Assembly (NCBI GenBank): GCA_038231615.1
Contig: JBBRLA010000002.1
Location: 1 to 38,665, forward strand
Length of the DNA stretch: 38,665 nt
Direction: 5' to 3'
Origin: Polyangia bacterium
GTDB lineage: Bacteria > Myxococcota_A > Polyangia > Palsa-1104 > JAEUJZ01
Shown here: piece by piece, positions 19,369-27,168 of the stretch
How the letters are laid out: each line of letters begins with the position of its first letter
How positions within the stretch are numbered: position 1 is the stretch's first letter
Notes under the pieces: generated by a model
Databases searched by the model: none
Told to the model about the DNA's origin: nothing
What the model saw: only the letters and a program-made list of their open reading frames with translations
Program-made: the position numbers and the translations under genes

Positions 19369-21789
19369 TTAGTAGTCAATGCCATCGTCGGTCGCATGGT
19401 CCTTGTCGATGTGCATCTGGGGCAGATATTCTTCCTTATCCCAGAGGTATACGTAATGGGCGTAGATGTCGAGCGCCTTCTTCATGTACTCGCGGGTCTG
19501 CGTGTAGGCGCACAGCTCGATGAACTCGTCGAGCTGCCGATCGCCGTGCTGCCCGAGCCAGCGCAGCATGGCCTTGGGCCCGGCGTTGAAGCTGCCAGCC
19601 CCGAGCGCGATCTGTCCCTTGAACTTGCGCAAAAGGTGCCCGATGTACCACGCCCCGAACTGGATGTTCCCCTCGGGATCGTAAAGGACGTCGTCGGTGT
19701 AGGCACGGCCGATGTTGGGCGCCACCTTCTGGCTGGTCGGCGGAATCATCTGCAAGAGCCCGATGGCGTCGGCGTAGGAGACGTCGTGGGGGTTGTACGC
19801 CGACTCCTTCTGCATGATGGTGTACAGGTACCGGGGCGGGTTCTGCCCGGTGGGGGCGTATTTTTCGACGTATTCCTGATAGGCCAGCGGGTAGGCCAGC
19901 TCCCAGTAGCGGCGGGCGGCGGCGGACTTGTGGGGATCCTGGCGCAGGGCGCCCTCGCCGTACTCCTCCGCCAGGAGGTGCGGGCGCTGGAAGTTCTGCC
20001 CCCGCTGGTAGCGGTCGAAGAGCACCGGCAAGGCATGGGACGACCCATACCGGCCGATCAGGGCCCCCTCGACCCGGTGCAGTTCATAGCCGGCCTCGAC
20101 CGGCAGGTCCGCCGAGAGCAACTCCTCGACGCGCAGCACGTCGGCGTCCCGGGCGACCCGGGGGTCCGCCTCCAGCGGCGGGACGGGCGAAGGACTTGAG
20201 GAGGGCACGTCGCCAAAGGGGCCGATGTCGATTTTCGCTTCGGGCTTCGTTTCGATTTTCGTTTCGGGCTTGGCCTCGCGCAGGCGCACCCGGGCCAGCA
20301 GGGCATAGTACGACAAGGGTCGGATGCCGACGAGCTTGCGCCACACGACCTGGGCCTCGGCGCCCTTGCCCAGGTGGACCAGGGCCTGCCCCGCCCAGTA
20401 GCGCCCTTTATCGCCGAGGGTCCCCGGGCGTGCAGAAAGCGTCTGGAAATCGTCCAGCGCCCCAGGGTAGTCCCCCAGCAGGTAGCGCGAGAACCCCTGG
20501 TACCAGCGGGCATCCTCGGCGAAGGGGCCGGGGTAGCGGCGGAGGGTCCCCTGCAAAAGGGGGATGGCTTCCTTGTAGCGCCCGCGGTTGTACTCCAGCC
20601 AACCGGTCAAAAAGGAGGCCTCCGCGGCGTAGCGCGAGCCGGGGTGCGCCTTGACCAGCGCCTGGTACCCGGCGATCGCCTGCTGATCTTTGTCCGCCCG
20701 GGAGAGCGCCCGCGCCCCGTGGAACATCGCTTCGGCCTGGCGCTCGCCCTTCATTCGCGCCGCCACCGATAGCAGCTTGTCGGCGGCCTGCTCATAGCCG
20801 TGGCGCATCTTGTAGTAGGTGGTGCCGGCCCAATAGTCGACCTCGTCCTGCACCGCCTGGCCGACGTCCTTGGGCACCTGCTGAAGTTCGGCCAGTGCCT
20901 CGGGCCACTTGCGGCTGAGCGTCATGTTCCTGGCTCGCTGGATGTGTTCGCCTGCCTCGATCCGGGTCTCGCTGTCGAGGGCACGCAGGTCGACAAGGGC
21001 CTGCTCGGCGAAGGGGTGCAGGGGGTGATCGACGTAGACCTTGCGCAGGCCGGCGCGGGCCTCGACCCGGTGCCCGGCGCGGGCCTCGATCTGGGCCAGG
21101 CGGAAGCGCAGGACGGCGGGGTCAATCTCGGCACCGACGCTCTTCAAGGCCGCCTGGAAGGCCACCCGGGCCTTGTCGTCCTCCTTGGGGCCCAGTTCCC
21201 ACAGGCAGTCCGCCGCCCGGGCCCGGGCCAGGGCCAGAAAGCGCGTCCCCGGCAGGGCGGCCAGGGTCTGGAAGTGCGCTAGGGCGGCGCGCAGCAGCTT
21301 CTCGGCGTTCTTGGTTTCGGGCGGGTTCTGGTTCTGGTTCTTGGTTTCGGGCGGGTTCGCGGAGGGCTCGGTGCCCAGCAGCGCCTCGCTCTCGGCCAGA
21401 AAGTAAAGGGCGTAGTCGCGGTTGCGCAGGGCCTCGGCGGAGGTGTCCATGGCCACCGGCAGGAGCGCCTTGCGGGCATCGGCGTAGTCTCCCGCGAGGA
21501 AGGCGCGGCCCCCGTCTCGGAGGCGGGCGACGCTGGCCGAGGGCGGGGAGGCCTTCGCGATCCGAGGGGGGGCCTTCGCGACCCGAGGGGGGGCCTTCGC
21601 GACCCGAGGGGGGGCCTTCACGACCGGGGCCTTGCCGCGCTGCCGCGAGGGGGCCGCCGCCGCCGGGACGGCGAGCCCCGACGACATCCCCGAGAGGATC
21701 AACAGGGCAAGAAGGCGCAATCCTTCGCCGTGCGGGCGGCGCCGTTTTCCTTGCAGAGGCGGCAGCGGGCCAGGTAAGGCATGTGGCAC
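19369..21789 (-). CDS. TPR-containing soluble lytic murein transglycosylase (Slt family)
   Basis: IMQKESAYNP (catalytic Glu), AIGLLQMIP, LYDPEGNIQFGAWY, SFNAGP, TREYMKK; TPR repeats; signal-like N-terminus. Start uncertain. Confidence 0.9.
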   Translation of the reverse strand: MPHALPGPLPPLQGKRRRPHGEGLRLLALLILSGMSSGLAVPAAAAPSRQRGKAPVVKAPPRVAKAPPRVAKAPPRIAKASPPSASVARLRDGGRAFLAGDYADARKALLPVAMDTSAEALRNRDYALYFLAESEALLGTEPSANPPETKNQNQNPPETKNAEKLLRAALAHFQTLAALPGTRFLALARARAADCLWELGPKEDDKARVAFQAALKSVGAEIDPAVLRFRLAQIEARAGHRVEARAGLRKVYVDHPLHPFAEQALVDLRALDSETRIEAGEHIQRARNMTLSRKWPEALAELQQVPKDVGQAVQDEVDYWAGTTYYKMRHGYEQAADKLLSVAARMKGERQAEAMFHGARALSRADKDQQAIAGYQALVKAHPGSRYAAEASFLTGWLEYNRGRYKEAIPLLQGTLRRYPGPFAEDARWYQGFSRYLLGDYPGALDDFQTLSARPGTLGDKGRYWAGQALVHLGKGAEAQVVWRKLVGIRPLSYYALLARVRLREAKPETKIETKPEAKIDIGPFGDVPSSSPSPVPPLEADPRVARDADVLRVEELLSADLPVEAGYELHRVEGALIGRYGSSHALPVLFDRYQRGQNFQRPHLLAEEYGEGALRQDPHKSAAARRYWELAYPLAYQEYVEKYAPTGQNPPRYLYTIMQKESAYNPHDVSYADAIGLLQMIPPTSQKVAPNIGRAYTDDVLYDPEGNIQFGAWYIGHLLRKFKGQIALGAGSFNAGPKAMLRWLGQHGDRQLDEFIELCAYTQTREYMKKALDIYAHYVYLWDKEEYLPQMHIDKDHATDDGIDY
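21545..21632 (-). repeat. 21-bp coding tandem repeat (KAPPR[V/I]A) in the Slt N-terminus
   Basis: VKAPPRVAKAPPRVAKAPPRIAKASPP. Other short duplications in this gene encode PPETKN x2 and KPETKIETKPEAKI. Confidence 0.85.
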
Positions 21790-21866
21790 GCTTCCAGTAT
21801 ACCGGCTGCGCGGGAGAGGGCCAGAAACCGCCGCCGCTCAAGATCGCCACGACATCGGCCGATATC

Positions 21867-22637
21867 ATGGACATGGAGATCTCATCGCACCCCGACCCCG
21901 AGGAAGTGGCCGCCCTGGTCCACGCCCTGCGCAGCGCCGCCGAGAAAACCAATGACGAGGAGGACGCGGTCCTGCGACAGCTCGGCGCCGCCCTGTGCCG
22001 GGTCGCCGAGCACCTGGAGTGGCACCGGTTCGCCGGGGCGGGTGCCGCCGGGGCCCCCGAGGTCAGCCCGATCAGCGAGGCGACCTTGCATGAACAGCTT
22101 CTGGTGCTGAGCGAGCGTGCCCAGCGGCTTCGCCTGGTCCTGTCGGCGGAGGCCTGCCTGGTCCACGCCGATCCGCCACGGGCGCGGGCGGCCTCGCACT
22201 TGCTCCTGCGCCTGCCTCCGCTGGAGAACCTGGCCGGCGAACAGGCCACCCTGGTGGGCCAGACCCCGGTGTCCGCGGGGACGGCCATGTCCACCCTCTC
22301 GGCCACCCGGGAGATGCTGGCCGCGGCGGCACCCGAGCGGGCCACCCTGGAGCAACTGGGACTTCTGCCGCTGATCGAGGAGATCGACCGGTCCTTGAAG
22401 CAGCTTACCGTGGCGGCGTCCCGGCTCCTTGCGCAGCCCGCCGGAGGGGCCGTCCCAGCCGCCGGCCTGGGGGTGCTCTTCGCCGAGGCGGCGGAACGCT
22501 GCGCCGAGTTCCGTGCCTACGTGCAGGTCGCAACCGGTCACCTTTCCCGACAGGGGGACGATCCCCTCAGGCGGCAACGGCTGCTGGCGCCCCTGTCGCG
22601 CCTTGCCGGGGTCAGCCCGTTTTTCGTGGCCCGCTGA
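21867..22637 (+). CDS. Hypothetical alpha-helical protein
   Basis: Long Leu/Ala/Glu-rich ORF with GC-rich third positions. Start moved from 21783 to ATG 21867 (or 21873) to avoid a head-to-head overlap with slt. Confidence 0.65.
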   Translation: MDMEISSHPDPEEVAALVHALRSAAEKTNDEEDAVLRQLGAALCRVAEHLEWHRFAGAGAAGAPEVSPISEATLHEQLLVLSERAQRLRLVLSAEACLVHADPPRARAASHLLLRLPPLENLAGEQATLVGQTPVSAGTAMSTLSATREMLAAAAPERATLEQLGLLPLIEEIDRSLKQLTVAASRLLAQPAGGAVPAAGLGVLFAEAAERCAEFRAYVQVATGHLSRQGDDPLRRQRLLAPLSRLAGVSPFFVAR

Positions 22638-22733: not shown

Positions 22734-23696
22734 ATGGCAGCATCACCCGCTCAAGGAAACCCCGGAGCATCCTTTGGCCCCGGCCCCGAAATAGATCGTC
22801 TGGTCGAGGAGATCGCCAGCCGCGTCCGCGCCCGTCTGGGCCTCTCCGCCGCCGCCAACCTGCCCCTGCGCGACCAGCCGTGTCACGAGGGCCCCTCGGA
22901 GAACTGCGGCGCCTGCGGCCTGTGCACCGTCCGCCGCCCGGACGCCGTCCGCGCCGTCGTCGGTGCCGGCGCCGAACGTGTCGGCTCCGGCCCCGGGACA
23001 CTGGGCGCCCCCGACGACATCGCCGGCCTCATCGACCACACCCTCCTCAAGGCCGATGCCACCGCCGCCGACGTCACCAAGCTCTGCGAAGAGGCCCGCC
23101 AGTACCACTTCGCCTCCGTCTGCGTCAACACCGGCCACGTCCCCCGGGCCAAGGCCCTCCTCTACGGCTCCGGCGTCATGGTCTGCGCCGTCGTCGGTTT
23201 TCCCCTGGGCGCCATGGCCACCGCCGCCAAGGCTTACGAGGCACGCGAGGCCGTCCGTGCAGGCGCCGACGAGATCGACATGGTCATCAACCAGGGCGCC
23301 CTCAAGTCCCGCGACTATGCCACCGTGCAGGAGGACATCCGCAAGGTCGTCGAGGCCGCCCGCCCCGCCCGCGTCAAGGTGATCCTCGAGACCGGGGCCC
23401 TCGACCAGGAGCAGAAGATCATCGCCATCACCCTCTCGAAGATCGCCGGCGCCCACTTTGTCAAGACCTCCACCGGCTTCGGCCCCGGCGGCGCCACCGC
23501 CGAGGACATCGCCCTCATGCGCAAACTCGTCGGCAGCGAGATGGGCGTCAAGGCCTCCGGCGGCGTCCGCACCTGCGAGGACGCCCGCAAGATGCAGGAG
23601 GCCGGCGCCAGCCGCATCGGCGCCTCGGCCTCCGTGTCCATCGTCAACGGCTGCAGGACCGGCAAGCCCCAGAAGGCCGCCGGATCGGGGTATTGA
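22734..23696 (+). CDS. deoC: Deoxyribose-phosphate aldolase with ~95-aa N-terminal extension
   Basis: [40 protein letters not shown] (Schiff-base Lys), [16 protein letters not shown]. Confidence 0.97.
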
Positions 23697-23697
23697 C

Positions 23698-24927
23698 ATG
23701 ACAAACCCGCGGTTCATCGATCGCGAAGCGCCGCAGGCGCCGCGGTTCATCGATCGTGCCCTGCTCTTGGTCATGGATTCCTGCGGCTGCGGCGCGGCCC
23801 CCGATGCCGACCGCTACGGCGACGTCGGCGCGAACACCCTGGGCAACCTGAGCCGCCGCGTCGGCGGCCTCTCCCTGCCCCACCTGCAGGAGCTGGGTCT
23901 GGGCAACCTCACTTCCATCCAGGGCGTGCCCCCAACCCAGGGCCACGCTGGTGCCCGCGGTCGCATGCGCGAGAAGAGCGCCGGCAAGGACACCACCACC
24001 GGTCACTGGGAAATCTGCGGCTTGGAGGTATCCCGCCCCTTCCCCACCTTCCCGGATGGCTTCCCGAAAGAAATGCTCGACCGCTTCACCGCCGCCGCCG
24101 GCCACGGCGTTTTAGGCAACTGCACCGCCTCGGGCACCGAGATCATCGAGCAGCTCGGCCCCCAGCATATGAGCAGCGGAGATCTGATCGTCTACACCTC
24201 GGCGGACAGTGTGTTCCAGATCGCCGCCCACGAACAGGTCGTGCCCCTGCCCGAACTGTACCGCATCTGCCAGGCTGCCCGGCGCCTCTGCGACGAGTAC
24301 AGCATCGGGCGCGTCATCGCCCGTCCCTTCGTCGGCCAGCCAGGCTCCTTCAAGCGCACCTACAACCGCCGCGACTTCTCGGTGCTGCCGCCTTCGCCCA
24401 CGGTGCTCGATCGCCTGGCCGGCGCCGGGCTGCCGGTGATCGGCGTGGGCAAGATCTCCGACATCTTCGCCGGGCAGGGGGTCACCGAGAACATCCACAC
24501 CGAGGGCAACGACGACGGGATGGAACACACCCTCAAAGCCTTCGCCAGGATGCAGTGCGGCCTGGTTTTCTGCAACCTGGTCGACTTCGACATGCTCTAC
24601 GGCCACCGCCGCGATGCGGTGGGCTACCAGCGGGCGCTGGTCGCCTTCGACGCCGCCCTGCCGCGCCTCCGAGCGATGATGGGGCCGCGGGACCTGGTGC
24701 TCCTGACCGCGGACCACGGCAACGACCCGACCTTCCCCGGCACCGACCACACCCGGGAGGAGGTGCCGATCCTGGCCTTCTCCAGCGGCCCGGCGCCATC
24801 GCCGGACCTGGGGGTGCGGCAGGGGTTTTACGACATCGCCCAGACGCTGTGCGACGCCTTCGGCCTGCCCCGATGGGCCCGGGGCCAGAGCTTCCTCTCG
24901 CAGGTGCTGACACAAGGAGCCGCATGA
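23698..24927 (+). CDS. deoB: Phosphopentomutase
   Basis: LVMDSCGCG, GKDTTTGHWE, YTSADSVFQIAAHE, GRVIARPF, NRRDFS, NLVDFDMLYGHRRD, TADHGNDPT, TDHTREEVP. Start moved to ATG 23698. Confidence 0.97.
   Translation: MTNPRFIDREAPQAPRFIDRALLLVMDSCGCGAAPDADRYGDVGANTLGNLSRRVGGLSLPHLQELGLGNLTSIQGVPPTQGHAGARGRMREKSAGKDTTTGHWEICGLEVSRPFPTFPDGFPKEMLDRFTAAAGHGVLGNCTASGTEIIEQLGPQHMSSGDLIVYTSADSVFQIAAHEQVVPLPELYRICQAARRLCDEYSIGRVIARPFVGQPGSFKRTYNRRDFSVLPPSPTVLDRLAGAGLPVIGVGKISDIFAGQGVTENIHTEGNDDGMEHTLKAFARMQCGLVFCNLVDFDMLYGHRRDAVGYQRALVAFDAALPRLRAMMGPRDLVLLTADHGNDPTFPGTDHTREEVPILAFSSGPAPSPDLGVRQGFYDIAQTLCDAFGLPRWARGQSFLSQVLTQGAA
23707..23756 (+). repeat. 33-bp-period hairpin repeat, copy B, in frame in the deoB N-terminus
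   Basis: CCGCGGTTCATCGATCG at 23707 and 23740; encodes PRFIDREAPQAPRFIDR. Confidence 0.85.
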
Positions 24928-24958: not shown

Positions 24959-26296
24959 ATGAGCGCCGCACTGAACATGGTCGATGTCATCCGCAAGAAG
25001 CGCGACGGCGGCGTCTTGTCCAACGACGAGATCGAGCGCTTCGTGCAGTCCTATACCCATGGCGCGGTGCCGGACTACCAGGCGGCGGCGCTCTTGATGG
25101 CGATCTTCTGGCGCGGCCTCACCGGGCCGGAGCTTTTGGCGCTGACCGACGCGATGCTGCGCTCGGGCGAGGTCATCGACCTGTCTGGGATACCGGGGAA
25201 GAAGGTGGACAAGCACTCGACGGGGGGCGTGGGCGACAAGATCTCCCTGCACCTGGCGCCCAGCGTCGCCGCGTGCGGGGTGCTGGTGCCGATGATCTCC
25301 GGTCGCGGCCTGGGCCACAGCGGCGGGACGCTGGACAAGCTGGAATCGATCCCGGGGTTCTGCACGGGCCTGGACCCCGACGAATTTCGCACCGTGCTTT
25401 CGCGGGCCGGGCTCTCGCTGATCGGGCAGACCGAGCACCTGGTGCCGGCGGACAAAAAGCTCTACGCCCTGCGCGACGTGACGGGCACGGTCGAGTCGAT
25501 CCCGCTGATCGCGGCGTCGATCATGTCGAAGAAGCTGGCCGAGGGGATCGACGCGCTGGTGCTGGACGTGAAGGTGGGCAGCGGGGCGTTTATGAAGACG
25601 CTCCCGGACGCGCGGCGGCTGGCGGCGACGCTCATCGACATCGGGCAGCGGGCGGGCAAGCGGGTGACGGCGTTCCTGACCGACATGGACCAGCCCCTGG
25701 GGCGTTGGGTGGGCAACGCCGCCGAGGTCAACGAATCGCTGGAAGTGCTGCGCGGGCACGGCGAGCCGGACCTGCTAGAACTGAACCTGCTTCTGGGGGC
25801 CGAGATGCTTTGTCTCTCAGGGGCGGCGACCGACGAGGCAGACGGGCGGGCGCGCATCGCCGCGGCGCTCTCCTCGGGAGAGGCGTTGCGCCGCTTCCAG
25901 CTCTGCGCTTTGATGCAGGGGGCGCAGATCGATCTCTCCGACCCCGATGAGGAGTGGACGACGATCAACCTGCACCGAGAGGCGCAGGCGGTCACCCATT
26001 CAGGCAGCGCCGGTCACGTGGTGTCCATCGACGCCGAGGCGGTGGGCCGGGCCGGGGTACACCTGCGCGCGGGGCGCAAACAGAAAGAGGACGCCATCGA
26101 CCCGGCGGCCTACATCTACCTGGACCGGAAGCGGGGCGAGCGGGTGGAGGCGGGGGCGCCACTCTGCCACTTCGCCGCGGCAGCGGACCTCCCTGCCGAG
26201 GAGCGGGAAGCGGCGGCGCGGCTTCTGCGCGGGGCCTACGAGATTGGCGCGGCGCCCCCGGATCCGCGCCCCCTGGTACTGGATGTGATGCGATGA
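24959..26296 (+). CDS. pdp: Pyrimidine-nucleoside (thymidine) phosphorylase
   Basis: IRKKRDG, PDYQAAALLMAI, DKHSTGGVGDK, SGRGLGHSGGTLDKLESIPG, PADKKLYALRDVT, SIMSKKLAEG, LDVKVGSGAFMK. Confidence 0.96.
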   Translation: MSAALNMVDVIRKKRDGGVLSNDEIERFVQSYTHGAVPDYQAAALLMAIFWRGLTGPELLALTDAMLRSGEVIDLSGIPGKKVDKHSTGGVGDKISLHLAPSVAACGVLVPMISGRGLGHSGGTLDKLESIPGFCTGLDPDEFRTVLSRAGLSLIGQTEHLVPADKKLYALRDVTGTVESIPLIAASIMSKKLAEGIDALVLDVKVGSGAFMKTLPDARRLAATLIDIGQRAGKRVTAFLTDMDQPLGRWVGNAAEVNESLEVLRGHGEPDLLELNLLLGAEMLCLSGAATDEADGRARIAAALSSGEALRRFQLCALMQGAQIDLSDPDEEWTTINLHREAQAVTHSGSAGHVVSIDAEAVGRAGVHLRAGRKQKEDAIDPAAYIYLDRKRGERVEAGAPLCHFAAAADLPAEEREAAARLLRGAYEIGAAPPDPRPLVLDVMR

Positions 26297-27168
26297 TCAC
26301 GATTTCTGAGCAGATCGCCGCGATGGCCGGCGTGGTACGTGGACGGCTGCCGCACGGTGCGGCGCCACGGGTCGGCCTGGTGCTGGGCTCGGGGCTGGGG
26401 GACTACGCGGATACCCTAGCTGGCGCGGTCAAGGTCCCCTACGGCGAGCTGCCGGGCTTCCCGGTCTCCCGGGTGGTGGGCCACGCCGGGAACCTGGTGT
26501 ATGGGCGAGGGCCGGCGAGTTCAGCGCATGGGGCGGGGCAGGTCGAGGTGCTGGCGATGCAGGGGCGGGTACACTCCTACGAGGGCCACAGTCTGGAGAC
26601 AGTGGTGCTGCCGATCCGGGCGCTCATCGCCTGCGGCTGCGACACCCTGGTGCTGACCAACGCCGCGGGAGGCATCGGCGCGGGGCTTTCCCCGGGGCAA
26701 CTGGTCCTCCTTTGCGATCACCTGAACCTCATGGGCGGCTCGCCGCTACGGGGCGAGAACGACGGGCGGCTCGGTCCGCGCTTCCCCGACATGAGCGCGG
26801 TCTACGACCCGCTGCTGCGGACGCTGGCCCGGGAGGCGGGCCGGGCGATGGGCATGCAGCTTCACGAAGGTGTGTACGCTGGCTGCGCCGGCCCGCAGTA
26901 CGAGACCCCGGCGGAAGTGCGGATGCTGCGCACCCTGGGCGCCGACCTGGTGGGGATGTCGACGGTGCCGGAGGCGATCGCCGCGCGTCACATGGGCGCG
27001 CGGGTGCTGGGCATCTCGTGCGTCACCAATCTGGCCGCGGGGCTTGGCGGCGCCACCCTGACCCACGACGAGGTCACCGATACGGCGGCGCGGGTGCGCG
27101 GCGACTTCATCCGCCTGCTGGATGGAATCCTCGCCGGCCTGGCGCGCGGGACCCCGTCCCATGCGTGA
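26293..27168 (+). CDS. punA: Purine-nucleoside phosphorylase (trimeric type)
   Basis: VLGSGLG, GHAG, MQGRVHSYEG, LTNAAGG, GPRFPDMS, GPQYETPAE, VGMSTVPE, SCVTN. Start moved to ATG 26293 (ATGA overlap with the pdp stop). Confidence 0.95.
   Translation: MITISEQIAAMAGVVRGRLPHGAAPRVGLVLGSGLGDYADTLAGAVKVPYGELPGFPVSRVVGHAGNLVYGRGPASSAHGAGQVEVLAMQGRVHSYEGHSLETVVLPIRALIACGCDTLVLTNAAGGIGAGLSPGQLVLLCDHLNLMGGSPLRGENDGRLGPRFPDMSAVYDPLLRTLAREAGRAMGMQLHEGVYAGCAGPQYETPAEVRMLRTLGADLVGMSTVPEAIAARHMGARVLGISCVTNLAAGLGGATLTHDEVTDTAARVRGDFIRLLDGILAGLARGTPSHA

Follow-up and report, generated by a model that had tools for sequence, protein, structure and literature searches.

The 38,665-nt stretch of Polyangia DNA analysed here, called the window below, carries at 22734-23696 a deoC gene for a deoxyribose-phosphate aldolase (DERA) which is likely to be cargo of a bacterial microcompartment (BMC). 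In the explanation that we favour, this DERA, encoded in a deo operon, would be packaged in a shell of the Haliangium ochraceum (HO) type, and its N-terminal extension would combine an encapsulation peptide, a four-ligand metal centre and an adaptor that resembles the alpha7-beta8 unit of the aldolase barrel. What was computed is the make-up of the protein, its conservation, its gene neighbourhoods and its joint occurrence with shell genes; from these we infer encapsulation, metal binding and the adaptor role. The cargo assignment is argued for by the presence of shell genes in the genome, by their co-occurrence with the extension in 71 of 75 extension-bearing genomes, by orthologues encoded inside shell loci, and by close DERAs of shell-less genomes, which do not carry the extension.

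Anatomy of the aldolase and its N-terminal extension

The gene and the parts of its product are the following.

22734-23696, + strand: deoC/DERA gene, 320 codons plus stop (open reading frame list, Pfam PF01791, matches to solved DERAs)
22734-22784, + strand: leader, residues 1-17, variable and Pro/Gly-rich (unconserved in the homologue alignment; predicted local distance difference test score, pLDDT, 46-56)
22785-22859, + strand: amphipathic helix resembling an encapsulation peptide, residues 18-42 (AlphaFold2 model, conservation, hydrophobic moment)
22860-22880, + strand: linker, residues 43-49 (alignment of 24 orthologues)
22881-22925, + strand: putative cysteine knuckle C50-x7-C58-x2-C61-G62-x-C64, followed by V-R-R-P (to 22940) (conservation, Cys counts)
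22929-23000, + strand: degenerate copy of the barrel alpha7-beta8 unit, residues 66-89, V-R-R-P...G-A-x-R-V-G (profile-profile alignment)
23013-23669, + strand: DERA (beta/alpha)8 barrel, residues 94-312 (Pfam, sequence and fold matches)
23670-23693, + strand: C-terminal tail, variable, with a conserved terminal Tyr (alignments)

Judged by sequence and predicted fold, the product of the reading frame is a DeoC/DERA class I aldolase. PF01791 covers residues 99-297 (E 3e-15, 56.9 bits against a curated cut-off of 23.8), residues 94-309 align with solved DERAs in a sequence search (best E 8.5e-70), and in a fold comparison residues 89-312 of the AlphaFold2 (AF2) model match 6d33_A with Z 37.3 and a root-mean-square deviation of 1.1 A over 220 residues at 57% identity. 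D182, K244 and K273 are invariant in an alignment of 60 homologues; from their motifs we take them to be the catalytic Asp, the Schiff-base Lys and the second Lys of Escherichia coli DERA. In a profile search this protein was the sole DERA-type match of the genome; contig C41 encodes the one further PF01791 protein, apparently a different family member (107.3 bits, as compared to 57.9 for the deoC product). The C-terminal Y320 occurs in every one of 25 aligned sequences and shows 90% or higher conservation in 60; the C-terminal Tyr of the E. coli enzyme has a catalytic role. The tail of the homologues is ca. 10-75 residues long and Tyr-terminated, and the terminal Tyr is missing from two DERAs encoded within shell loci (L029 and L038).

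According to the Pfam, sequence and fold alignments, about 90 N-terminal residues lie outside the DERA fold. Fold comparison of the whole AF2 model matched the barrel alone and gave no partner for the extension, and the first 95 amino acids showed no Pfam family at E<=1. The original prediction, made from the letters of the window, described ca. 95 extra residues with a Pro/Gly leader, a helix and a C-x7-C-x2-C-x2-C cluster, followed by a segment echoing the enzyme's own C-terminus; these elements are present in this order and all coordinates check, with C50 at 22881-22883, C64 at 22923-22925 and the helix core E19-L35 at 22788-22838. More than 120 homologues of 300-360 amino acids cover 89-97% of the query, apart from a 259-amino acid fragment (81%) and one other protein (84%). 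In the alignment of 60 of them (mean column identity 50%), C50, C58, G79 and R82 of the extension are invariant, and conservation reaches 90% or more at L23, V24, V31, C61, G62, C64, R67, R68, P69 and A80. Because it is conserved as protein at this distance, the extension must be coding and not a chance reading frame. A wrongly assigned deoC start codon was considered and rejected, since protein conservation of the extension holds down to about 50% identity.

The extension was found on DERAs only, in the sense that all 30 proteins retrieved with its profile are PF01791 proteins. The 97-amino acid extension gave 40 matches, mostly short fragments, among 1.84 billion representative sequences; a word-based search with residues 17-97 returned 10 close relatives only, and a search of the ESM Atlas gave no usable match.

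The helix spans residues 18-36 in the AF2 model built from a 25-row alignment (pLDDT ca. 86) and residues 18-42 in that from a 60-row alignment. The linker that follows varies among orthologues from almost nothing to about 70 residues and is His-rich in some lineages. A helix with such a variable linker fits the published definition of an encapsulation peptide as worded in the main text of PMC11585597. In L035 (5944-6372, genome G034) and in family f23 the segment between helix and cysteines is enlarged by His-/Gln-rich repeats (G-Q-T-E-Q-S-x-G units), and another residue takes the place of the last Cys in the cluster. The cysteine cluster and the V-R-R-P...G-A-x-R-V-G element act as a fixed attachment of the barrel: in side-by-side orthologues the spacing from this element to strand beta1 is constant.

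Profile-profile alignment indicated where the last part of the extension is repeated. With hhalign, residues 64-97 found barrel positions 181-204 (residues 278-301) as the best target, with a probability of 93%, E 2.7e-7 and a score of 38.4. The scores of 200 column shuffles averaged 10.8 (standard deviation 2.3, maximum 20.2) and the reversed profile scored 12.2, so that the echo noted by the original prediction is well above its null. Four disjoint orthologue subsets all gave the same barrel target, two of the four extending into alpha8, and the extension profile also matches the C-terminal 25-30 residues of seven solved DERAs. At the profile level, the last part of the extension is thus a degenerate copy of the barrel alpha7-beta8(-alpha8) unit. 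The simplest origin would be a partial tandem duplication or fusion that placed the 3' end of one deoC copy ahead of another.

Shell genes, distribution of the extension and the deo operon

The genome is an 8.4-Mb draft of 962 contigs (96.6% complete, 5.6% contaminated) with five PF00936 and seven PF03319 matches, located on contigs C5, C362, C338 and C219. Contig C5 carries consecutive genes for BMC-T, an aldehyde dehydrogenase (AldDh), BMC-P and BMC-H, with a class II aldolase ca. 3 kb off; on contig C338 another class II aldolase comes after a pair of BMC-P genes. In Sutter 2021 type I HO systems are described as a T-AldDh-P-H main locus plus a satellite of two BMC-P and an aldolase (PMC8217296), and by its gene order the layout of C5 and C338 (L013 and L014) is of this type. 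The N-terminus of the shell-locus AldDh forms an amphipathic helix with a hydrophobic pattern as in the DeoC helix. The same pairing of deoC and shell genes occurs in better-assembled relatives (G275, 5 contigs; G176, 1 contig). On contig C219 (L015, 6744-8133) there are four tandem BMC-P genes (PF03319), beyond the three expected for an HO system; they could belong to a second compartment type or reflect contamination of the bin (5.6%).

Co-occurrence was counted in 401 genomes of the phylum, with the 97-amino acid extension as query and PF00936 as shell marker. The extension is found in 75 genomes, PF00936 in 178 and both in 71. Accordingly 71 of the 178 shell-bearing genomes have the extension, compared to 4 of the 223 shell-less ones, and these four are weak matches (E 1.3e-4 to 9.8e-4). 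The pairing holds within families too: shell genes and extension occur in the same five of six genomes of family f8, and among the 23 genomes of f3 the only one with shell genes is also the only one with the extension. A DERA barrel match is present in 295 of the 401 genomes. Among the best 150 barrel matches, the median open frame is 257 amino acids for the 11 from shell-less genomes vs. 334 for the other 139, and shell-less DERAs that were read directly have short N-termini devoid of the helix (L048-L053, L065, L068 and L069, with L067 ambiguous).

Four of 16 related loci have the extension-bearing DERA adjoining BMC-H, BMC-P and AldDh genes (L029, L030, L038 and L041), two of the 16 share the deoC-deoB-deoA order of the window, and three further in-locus DERAs with the extension were found (L061-L063). 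Three of these in-locus genes encode RpiB fused to DERA, the helix and the cysteine module lying between the two domains (established by Pfam for L041). The fusions lie beside HO/SPU-like shell operons, SPU standing for sugar phosphate utilisation: L041 (5499-6932, G275), L061 and L062, the last with a cluster that has shrunk to C-x2-C-H. Beside a BMC-H gene in L030 (7311-8369, G212), one frame joins a helix resembling an encapsulation peptide, a domain of ca. 200 amino acids, the cysteine module and the DERA barrel. The additional domain has no Pfam match at E<=0.01; the frame is truncated by the contig end and may correspond to the flavoprotein-DERA fusion of Hodarchaeales described in the main text of the preprint PMC12747264.

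The association extends outside the phylum, where 25 loci of 80 named records were examined. Shell genes lie within 3 kb in 11 of the 25, in loci that include metagenome-assembled genomes (MAGs) of Elusimicrobia, Armatimonadetes, Vulcanimicrobiota, Holophagaceae and Spirochaetaceae, and all 11 DERAs have an extension (8 Cys-rich, 3 with the helix only). Nine of the 25 DERAs have no extension, among them those of Arthrobacter and Pseudarthrobacter and of MAGs from Chloroflexia, Bdellovibrio, Caldisericaceae, Peptostreptococcaceae and Actinomycetota, and no shell gene lies near any of the nine.

In a midpoint-rooted tree of 41 barrel domains, built with no outgroup, six in-locus DERAs stand apart from 35 satellite DERAs (SH-aLRT 96), with the cysteine module on both sides, and extension-less DERAs of shell-less genomes are nested among extension-bearing ones. 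The view of the original prediction that this DeoC is BMC cargo has gained support from these comparisons. The search for PF00936 and PF03319 genes that it suggested found both in the genome, albeit on other contigs; the AldDh with a similar peptide which it expected stands beside the shell genes; and an extension common in BMC-free genomes, which it named as a counter-observation, is not what was found.

In the window itself the gene stands in a different setting, with these neighbours.

23698-24927, + strand: deoB-like phosphopentomutase (Pfam Metalloenzyme, E 7.6e-34)
24959-26296, + strand: deoA-like pyrimidine-nucleoside phosphorylase (PF00591, PF02885, PF07831)
26368-27168, + strand: PNP_UDP_1 nucleoside phosphorylase, Pfam-matched part to stop, start approximate (PF01048)

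The deoB-like gene starts 1 nt past the deoC stop, PF01048 matches residues 139-393 of the reading frame 25954-27168 (E 4.4e-55), and an amidohydrolase gene lies farther downstream. From its predicted products, the deoC-deoB-deoA-nucleoside phosphorylase cluster is an ordinary deo-type operon for nucleoside catabolism. Within its first 20 codons the deoB-like gene has a direct repeat that is almost perfect (23701-23760, P-R-F-I-D-R twice, 9 codons apart); deoB homologues align from residue 20 onward, and this looks like a recent small 5' duplication. Directly upstream of deoC, the reading frame 21783-22637 (+, 284 amino acids) has no Pfam match and may or may not be a gene, the genome having a G+C content of 66.5%.

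The cysteine module, its proposed role and alternatives

Cysteines were counted over the 50 residues that precede the last element of the extension in 140 extension-bearing homologues, a set picked by likeness to the query and hence not unbiased. At least four Cys are present in 131 of them and three in the remaining 9. The changes appear to compensate each other: all three homologues that lack the last Cys and all four that lack the middle one have an extra Cys upstream, and in each of the 8 three-Cys forms a His stands no more than five residues ahead of the first Cys. Further rearrangements occur in other phyla, with three to five Cys/His ligands retained. This conservation together with the compensating ligand changes supports a putative four-ligand metal site, in line with the Zn or Fe-S (iron-sulfur) site of the original prediction; we regard Zn and a small Fe-S cluster as about equally likely. 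A predicted complex of the barrel (98-320), Zn and the module (44-97) scored 0.00 with a mark of 0.32 and carries no weight either way.

In the proposed scheme, cytosolic phosphorylases and the phosphopentomutase would provide deoxyribose 5-phosphate, which would enter the HO-type shell and there be split by the encapsulated DERA into glyceraldehyde 3-phosphate and acetaldehyde, the latter to be captured by a co-encapsulated acylating aldehyde dehydrogenase. Residues 18-42 and the length-variable linker would act as encapsulation peptide and residues 50-64 would form one four-ligand metal centre, fastening residues 66-89 as a small adaptor at constant spacing before strand beta1. This adaptor is probably structural, for packing or cargo-core contacts (the role is a guess), and would be neither catalytic nor needed for targeting.

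Several observations weigh against this explanation. With deoC and the shell genes on separate contigs of a draft assembly, a binning error is possible. In the phylum, 107 shell-bearing genomes have no match to the extension query, and one shell-bearing genome (L059) has a DERA devoid of any extension. The shell state changes only three times on the 41-row tree, giving between one (supported branches) and three (all branches) independent pairs, so that a relatedness-corrected test of the association is powerless. RpiB (PF02502) was not found by profile search of this 96.6% complete genome, and PTAC gave a partial match only. The amphipathicity of the helix is modest as calculated, with a hydrophobic moment of 0.54 for the best 18-residue stretch, which 3.8% of the shuffled versions of this stretch equal or exceed. 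As to the module, no Pfam metal-binding family scores above threshold for the extension, AF2 models residues 41-90 with no strands at a pLDDT of 63-76 (60-row alignment) or below 52 (25-row alignment), and helix-bearing DERAs devoid of the cysteines occur in shell-bearing genomes (L054-L057 and L060). Since such orthologues exist, the module does not belong to the targeting signal and is dispensable for a microcompartment DERA.

The alternative that survives best leaves the DERA as cargo and reads the knuckle as a redox-active Fe-S site ([4Fe-4S], [3Fe-4S] or [2Fe-2S]) that would sense oxygen or redox state, or relay electrons within the compartment, instead of serving as a structural pin; we hold this to be possible, at well below even chances. 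The segment C-x2-C-G-x-C-V-x-x-x-P-x-x-V resembles the ferredoxin-type Cys pattern, apart from an Arg for the last Cys, and the L024 orthologue has an Asp at the middle Cys position, a replacement that also occurs in some natural 4Fe-4S ferredoxins. At the knuckle the extension profile weakly matches 4Fe-4S proteins (FwdG, E 0.0092; '4Fe-4S binding protein', E 0.0095), and Fer4 appears below threshold in 2 of 23 orthologues (E 0.055). Such proteins make up 6 of the 15 PDB matches of the extension profile (E 0.009-3), each insignificant taken singly (single-domain i-Evalue 1 to 14), and the extension of the window itself shows no Fer4 family at E<=10. The drifting ligand positions and the His ligands of several lineages fit a mononuclear Zn at least as well. 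Also in favour of Zn are the tiny size of the module and the paired knuckles of some lineages: the query has one C-x2-C-G and two single Cys, and L058, L086 and L092 have C-x2-C pairs with further Cys/His. Moreover, DERA chemistry requires no electrons, and the module is missing from some helix-bearing orthologues. Fe-S relays have been reported for related compartments in the main text of PMC12747264, which speaks for Fe-S.

It is unlikely that the cysteines are metal-free, either forming disulfides or being the decaying remnant of the partial gene duplication that left the alpha7-beta8 copy. On the tree of 41 barrel domains the cysteine module has five or more losses, and the middling AF2 confidence would suit this account. 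Against it, 60 sequences with a mean identity of 50% show no exchange of C50 or C58, compensation preserves the four-ligand count, and the module is kept in DERAs of several phyla; invariance, compensating changes and persistence are not expected of a decaying remnant. Four DERAs of the shell-less family f54 (L048, L049, L050 and L053; ca. 64% identity) have no helix and carry a short Cys-rich run, M-S-C-x-C-(H)-C-P-N-G, at their N-terminal start, about 40 residues ahead of the barrel, which may be left over from the module or form a small site of its own.

Quite unlikely, too, is a cytosolic DERA whose N-terminal piece has nothing to do with microcompartments and serves oligomerisation, regulation or stability. 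The gene does lie in an ordinary deo operon distant from shell genes, none of the 38,665 nt of the window encodes a shell protein, and amphipathic helices are common. However, 71 of 75 extension-bearing genomes have shell genes, orthologues sit within shell loci of several phyla, close DERAs of shell-less genomes do not carry the extension, and in the main text of PMC11585597 the extension is restricted to SPU loci among DERAs. We have strong doubts about a metal- or redox-controlled switch in which the alpha7-beta8 copy competes with the genuine C-terminal unit or swaps between protomers. If true, DERA activity would be gated until encapsulation, or strand-swapped polymerisation would nucleate the cargo core, and a new principle of assembly or regulation of microcompartment cargo would follow. 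Packaging in an encapsulin-type compartment is hardly credible: Pyrococcus and Thermococcus do pair their DeoC genes with encapsulins of Family 4B (A-domain), but in those archaeal systems, as outlined in PMC8346489, DeoC precedes the A-domain gene, whereas here deoB lies downstream, and all associations found, with no encapsulin search of the genome made, are with BMC shell genes.

Microcompartment structure and engineering are modelled chiefly on HO shells, whose native function is termed enigmatic in the main text of PMC8217296. Because a deo-operon DERA with an SPU-type extension occurs in an HO type I genome and has in-locus relatives, the locus supports a role of HO compartments in processing the deoxyribose 5-phosphate that nucleoside breakdown delivers. 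One of the most widespread compartment types appears to have, in its signature enzyme, a conserved four-ligand metal site and an internal duplication. In PMC11585597 full-length SPU DERA is described as insoluble in E. coli and as soluble after deletion of the extension; a missing cofactor could be a reason for this insolubility.

Comparison with known compartment-associated aldolases

The closest described relatives are the SPU-type DERAs. According to the main text of Dwyer 2024 (PMC11585597), all SPU-locus DERAs and no other DERA carry an N-terminal extension of ca. 70 or more residues, composed of an amphipathic helix and two low-confidence beta strands. The query is similar in being a PF01791 DERA with a long N-terminal extension that starts with an amphipathic helix, and DERAs of SPU-like loci in other phyla share its helix, Cys cluster and G-A-x-R-V-G. 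It differs in that the gene belongs to a deo operon on a contig devoid of shell genes, in a genome lacking a PF02502 match; the SPU combination of DERA, RpiB-family protein and AldDh in one shell locus does not appear to be present. The RPI-DERA chimera of SPU3 (PMC11585597) is paralleled by genomes G275, G269 and G349, where helix and Cys module lie between RpiB and DERA in one frame. The published remark that the apparent linker of the fusion is a structural element of DERA agrees with these three genomes. Flav+DERA fusions are reported from Hodarchaeales compartments in the main text of PMC12747264. Unlike either fusion, the query protein has no fused domain.

A second relative is the PF01791 enzyme of HO genomes. 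Sutter 2021 (PMC8217296) mentions in its main text that some HO genomes carry elsewhere a PF01791 enzyme with an N-terminal extension resembling an encapsulation peptide, as possible HO cargo. The query genome, with its T-AldDh-P-H locus and P-P-aldolase satellite, is of the same kind, but that account consists of one sentence with nothing on anatomy; the present analysis adds counts of co-occurrence, orthologues inside shell loci and the loss of the extension in shell-less relatives.

Canonical encapsulation peptides share with the query a short amphipathic helix and a poorly conserved linker, also seen on the AldDh of the same genome; in the query, however, linker and enzyme are separated by 45 conserved residues, the module made of Cys knuckle and alpha7-beta8 copy, which the usual definition of such peptides does not include. 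The module resembles Fer4 in its spacing C-x2-C-G-x-C, in the Val that comes next and in having Pro at the fifth residue past the third Cys. It differs by an Arg in place of the Cys before Pro, by a fourth ligand 7 residues upstream and by having no second half-domain; with its profile below threshold and no C-x2-C-x2-C-x3-C-P pattern, it would not be classed as a Fer4 member.

The main texts of PMC11585597, PMC8217296 and PMC12747264 do not mention cysteines, metal or a duplication in DERA, though a supplementary logo may show the cysteines, and our literature searches found no other paper on a DERA Cys module or internal duplication. The cargo reading is already published as a hypothesis in the main texts of PMC8217296 and PMC11585597, and the metal-site behaviour and the internal duplication seem to be new details relative to the searched literature.

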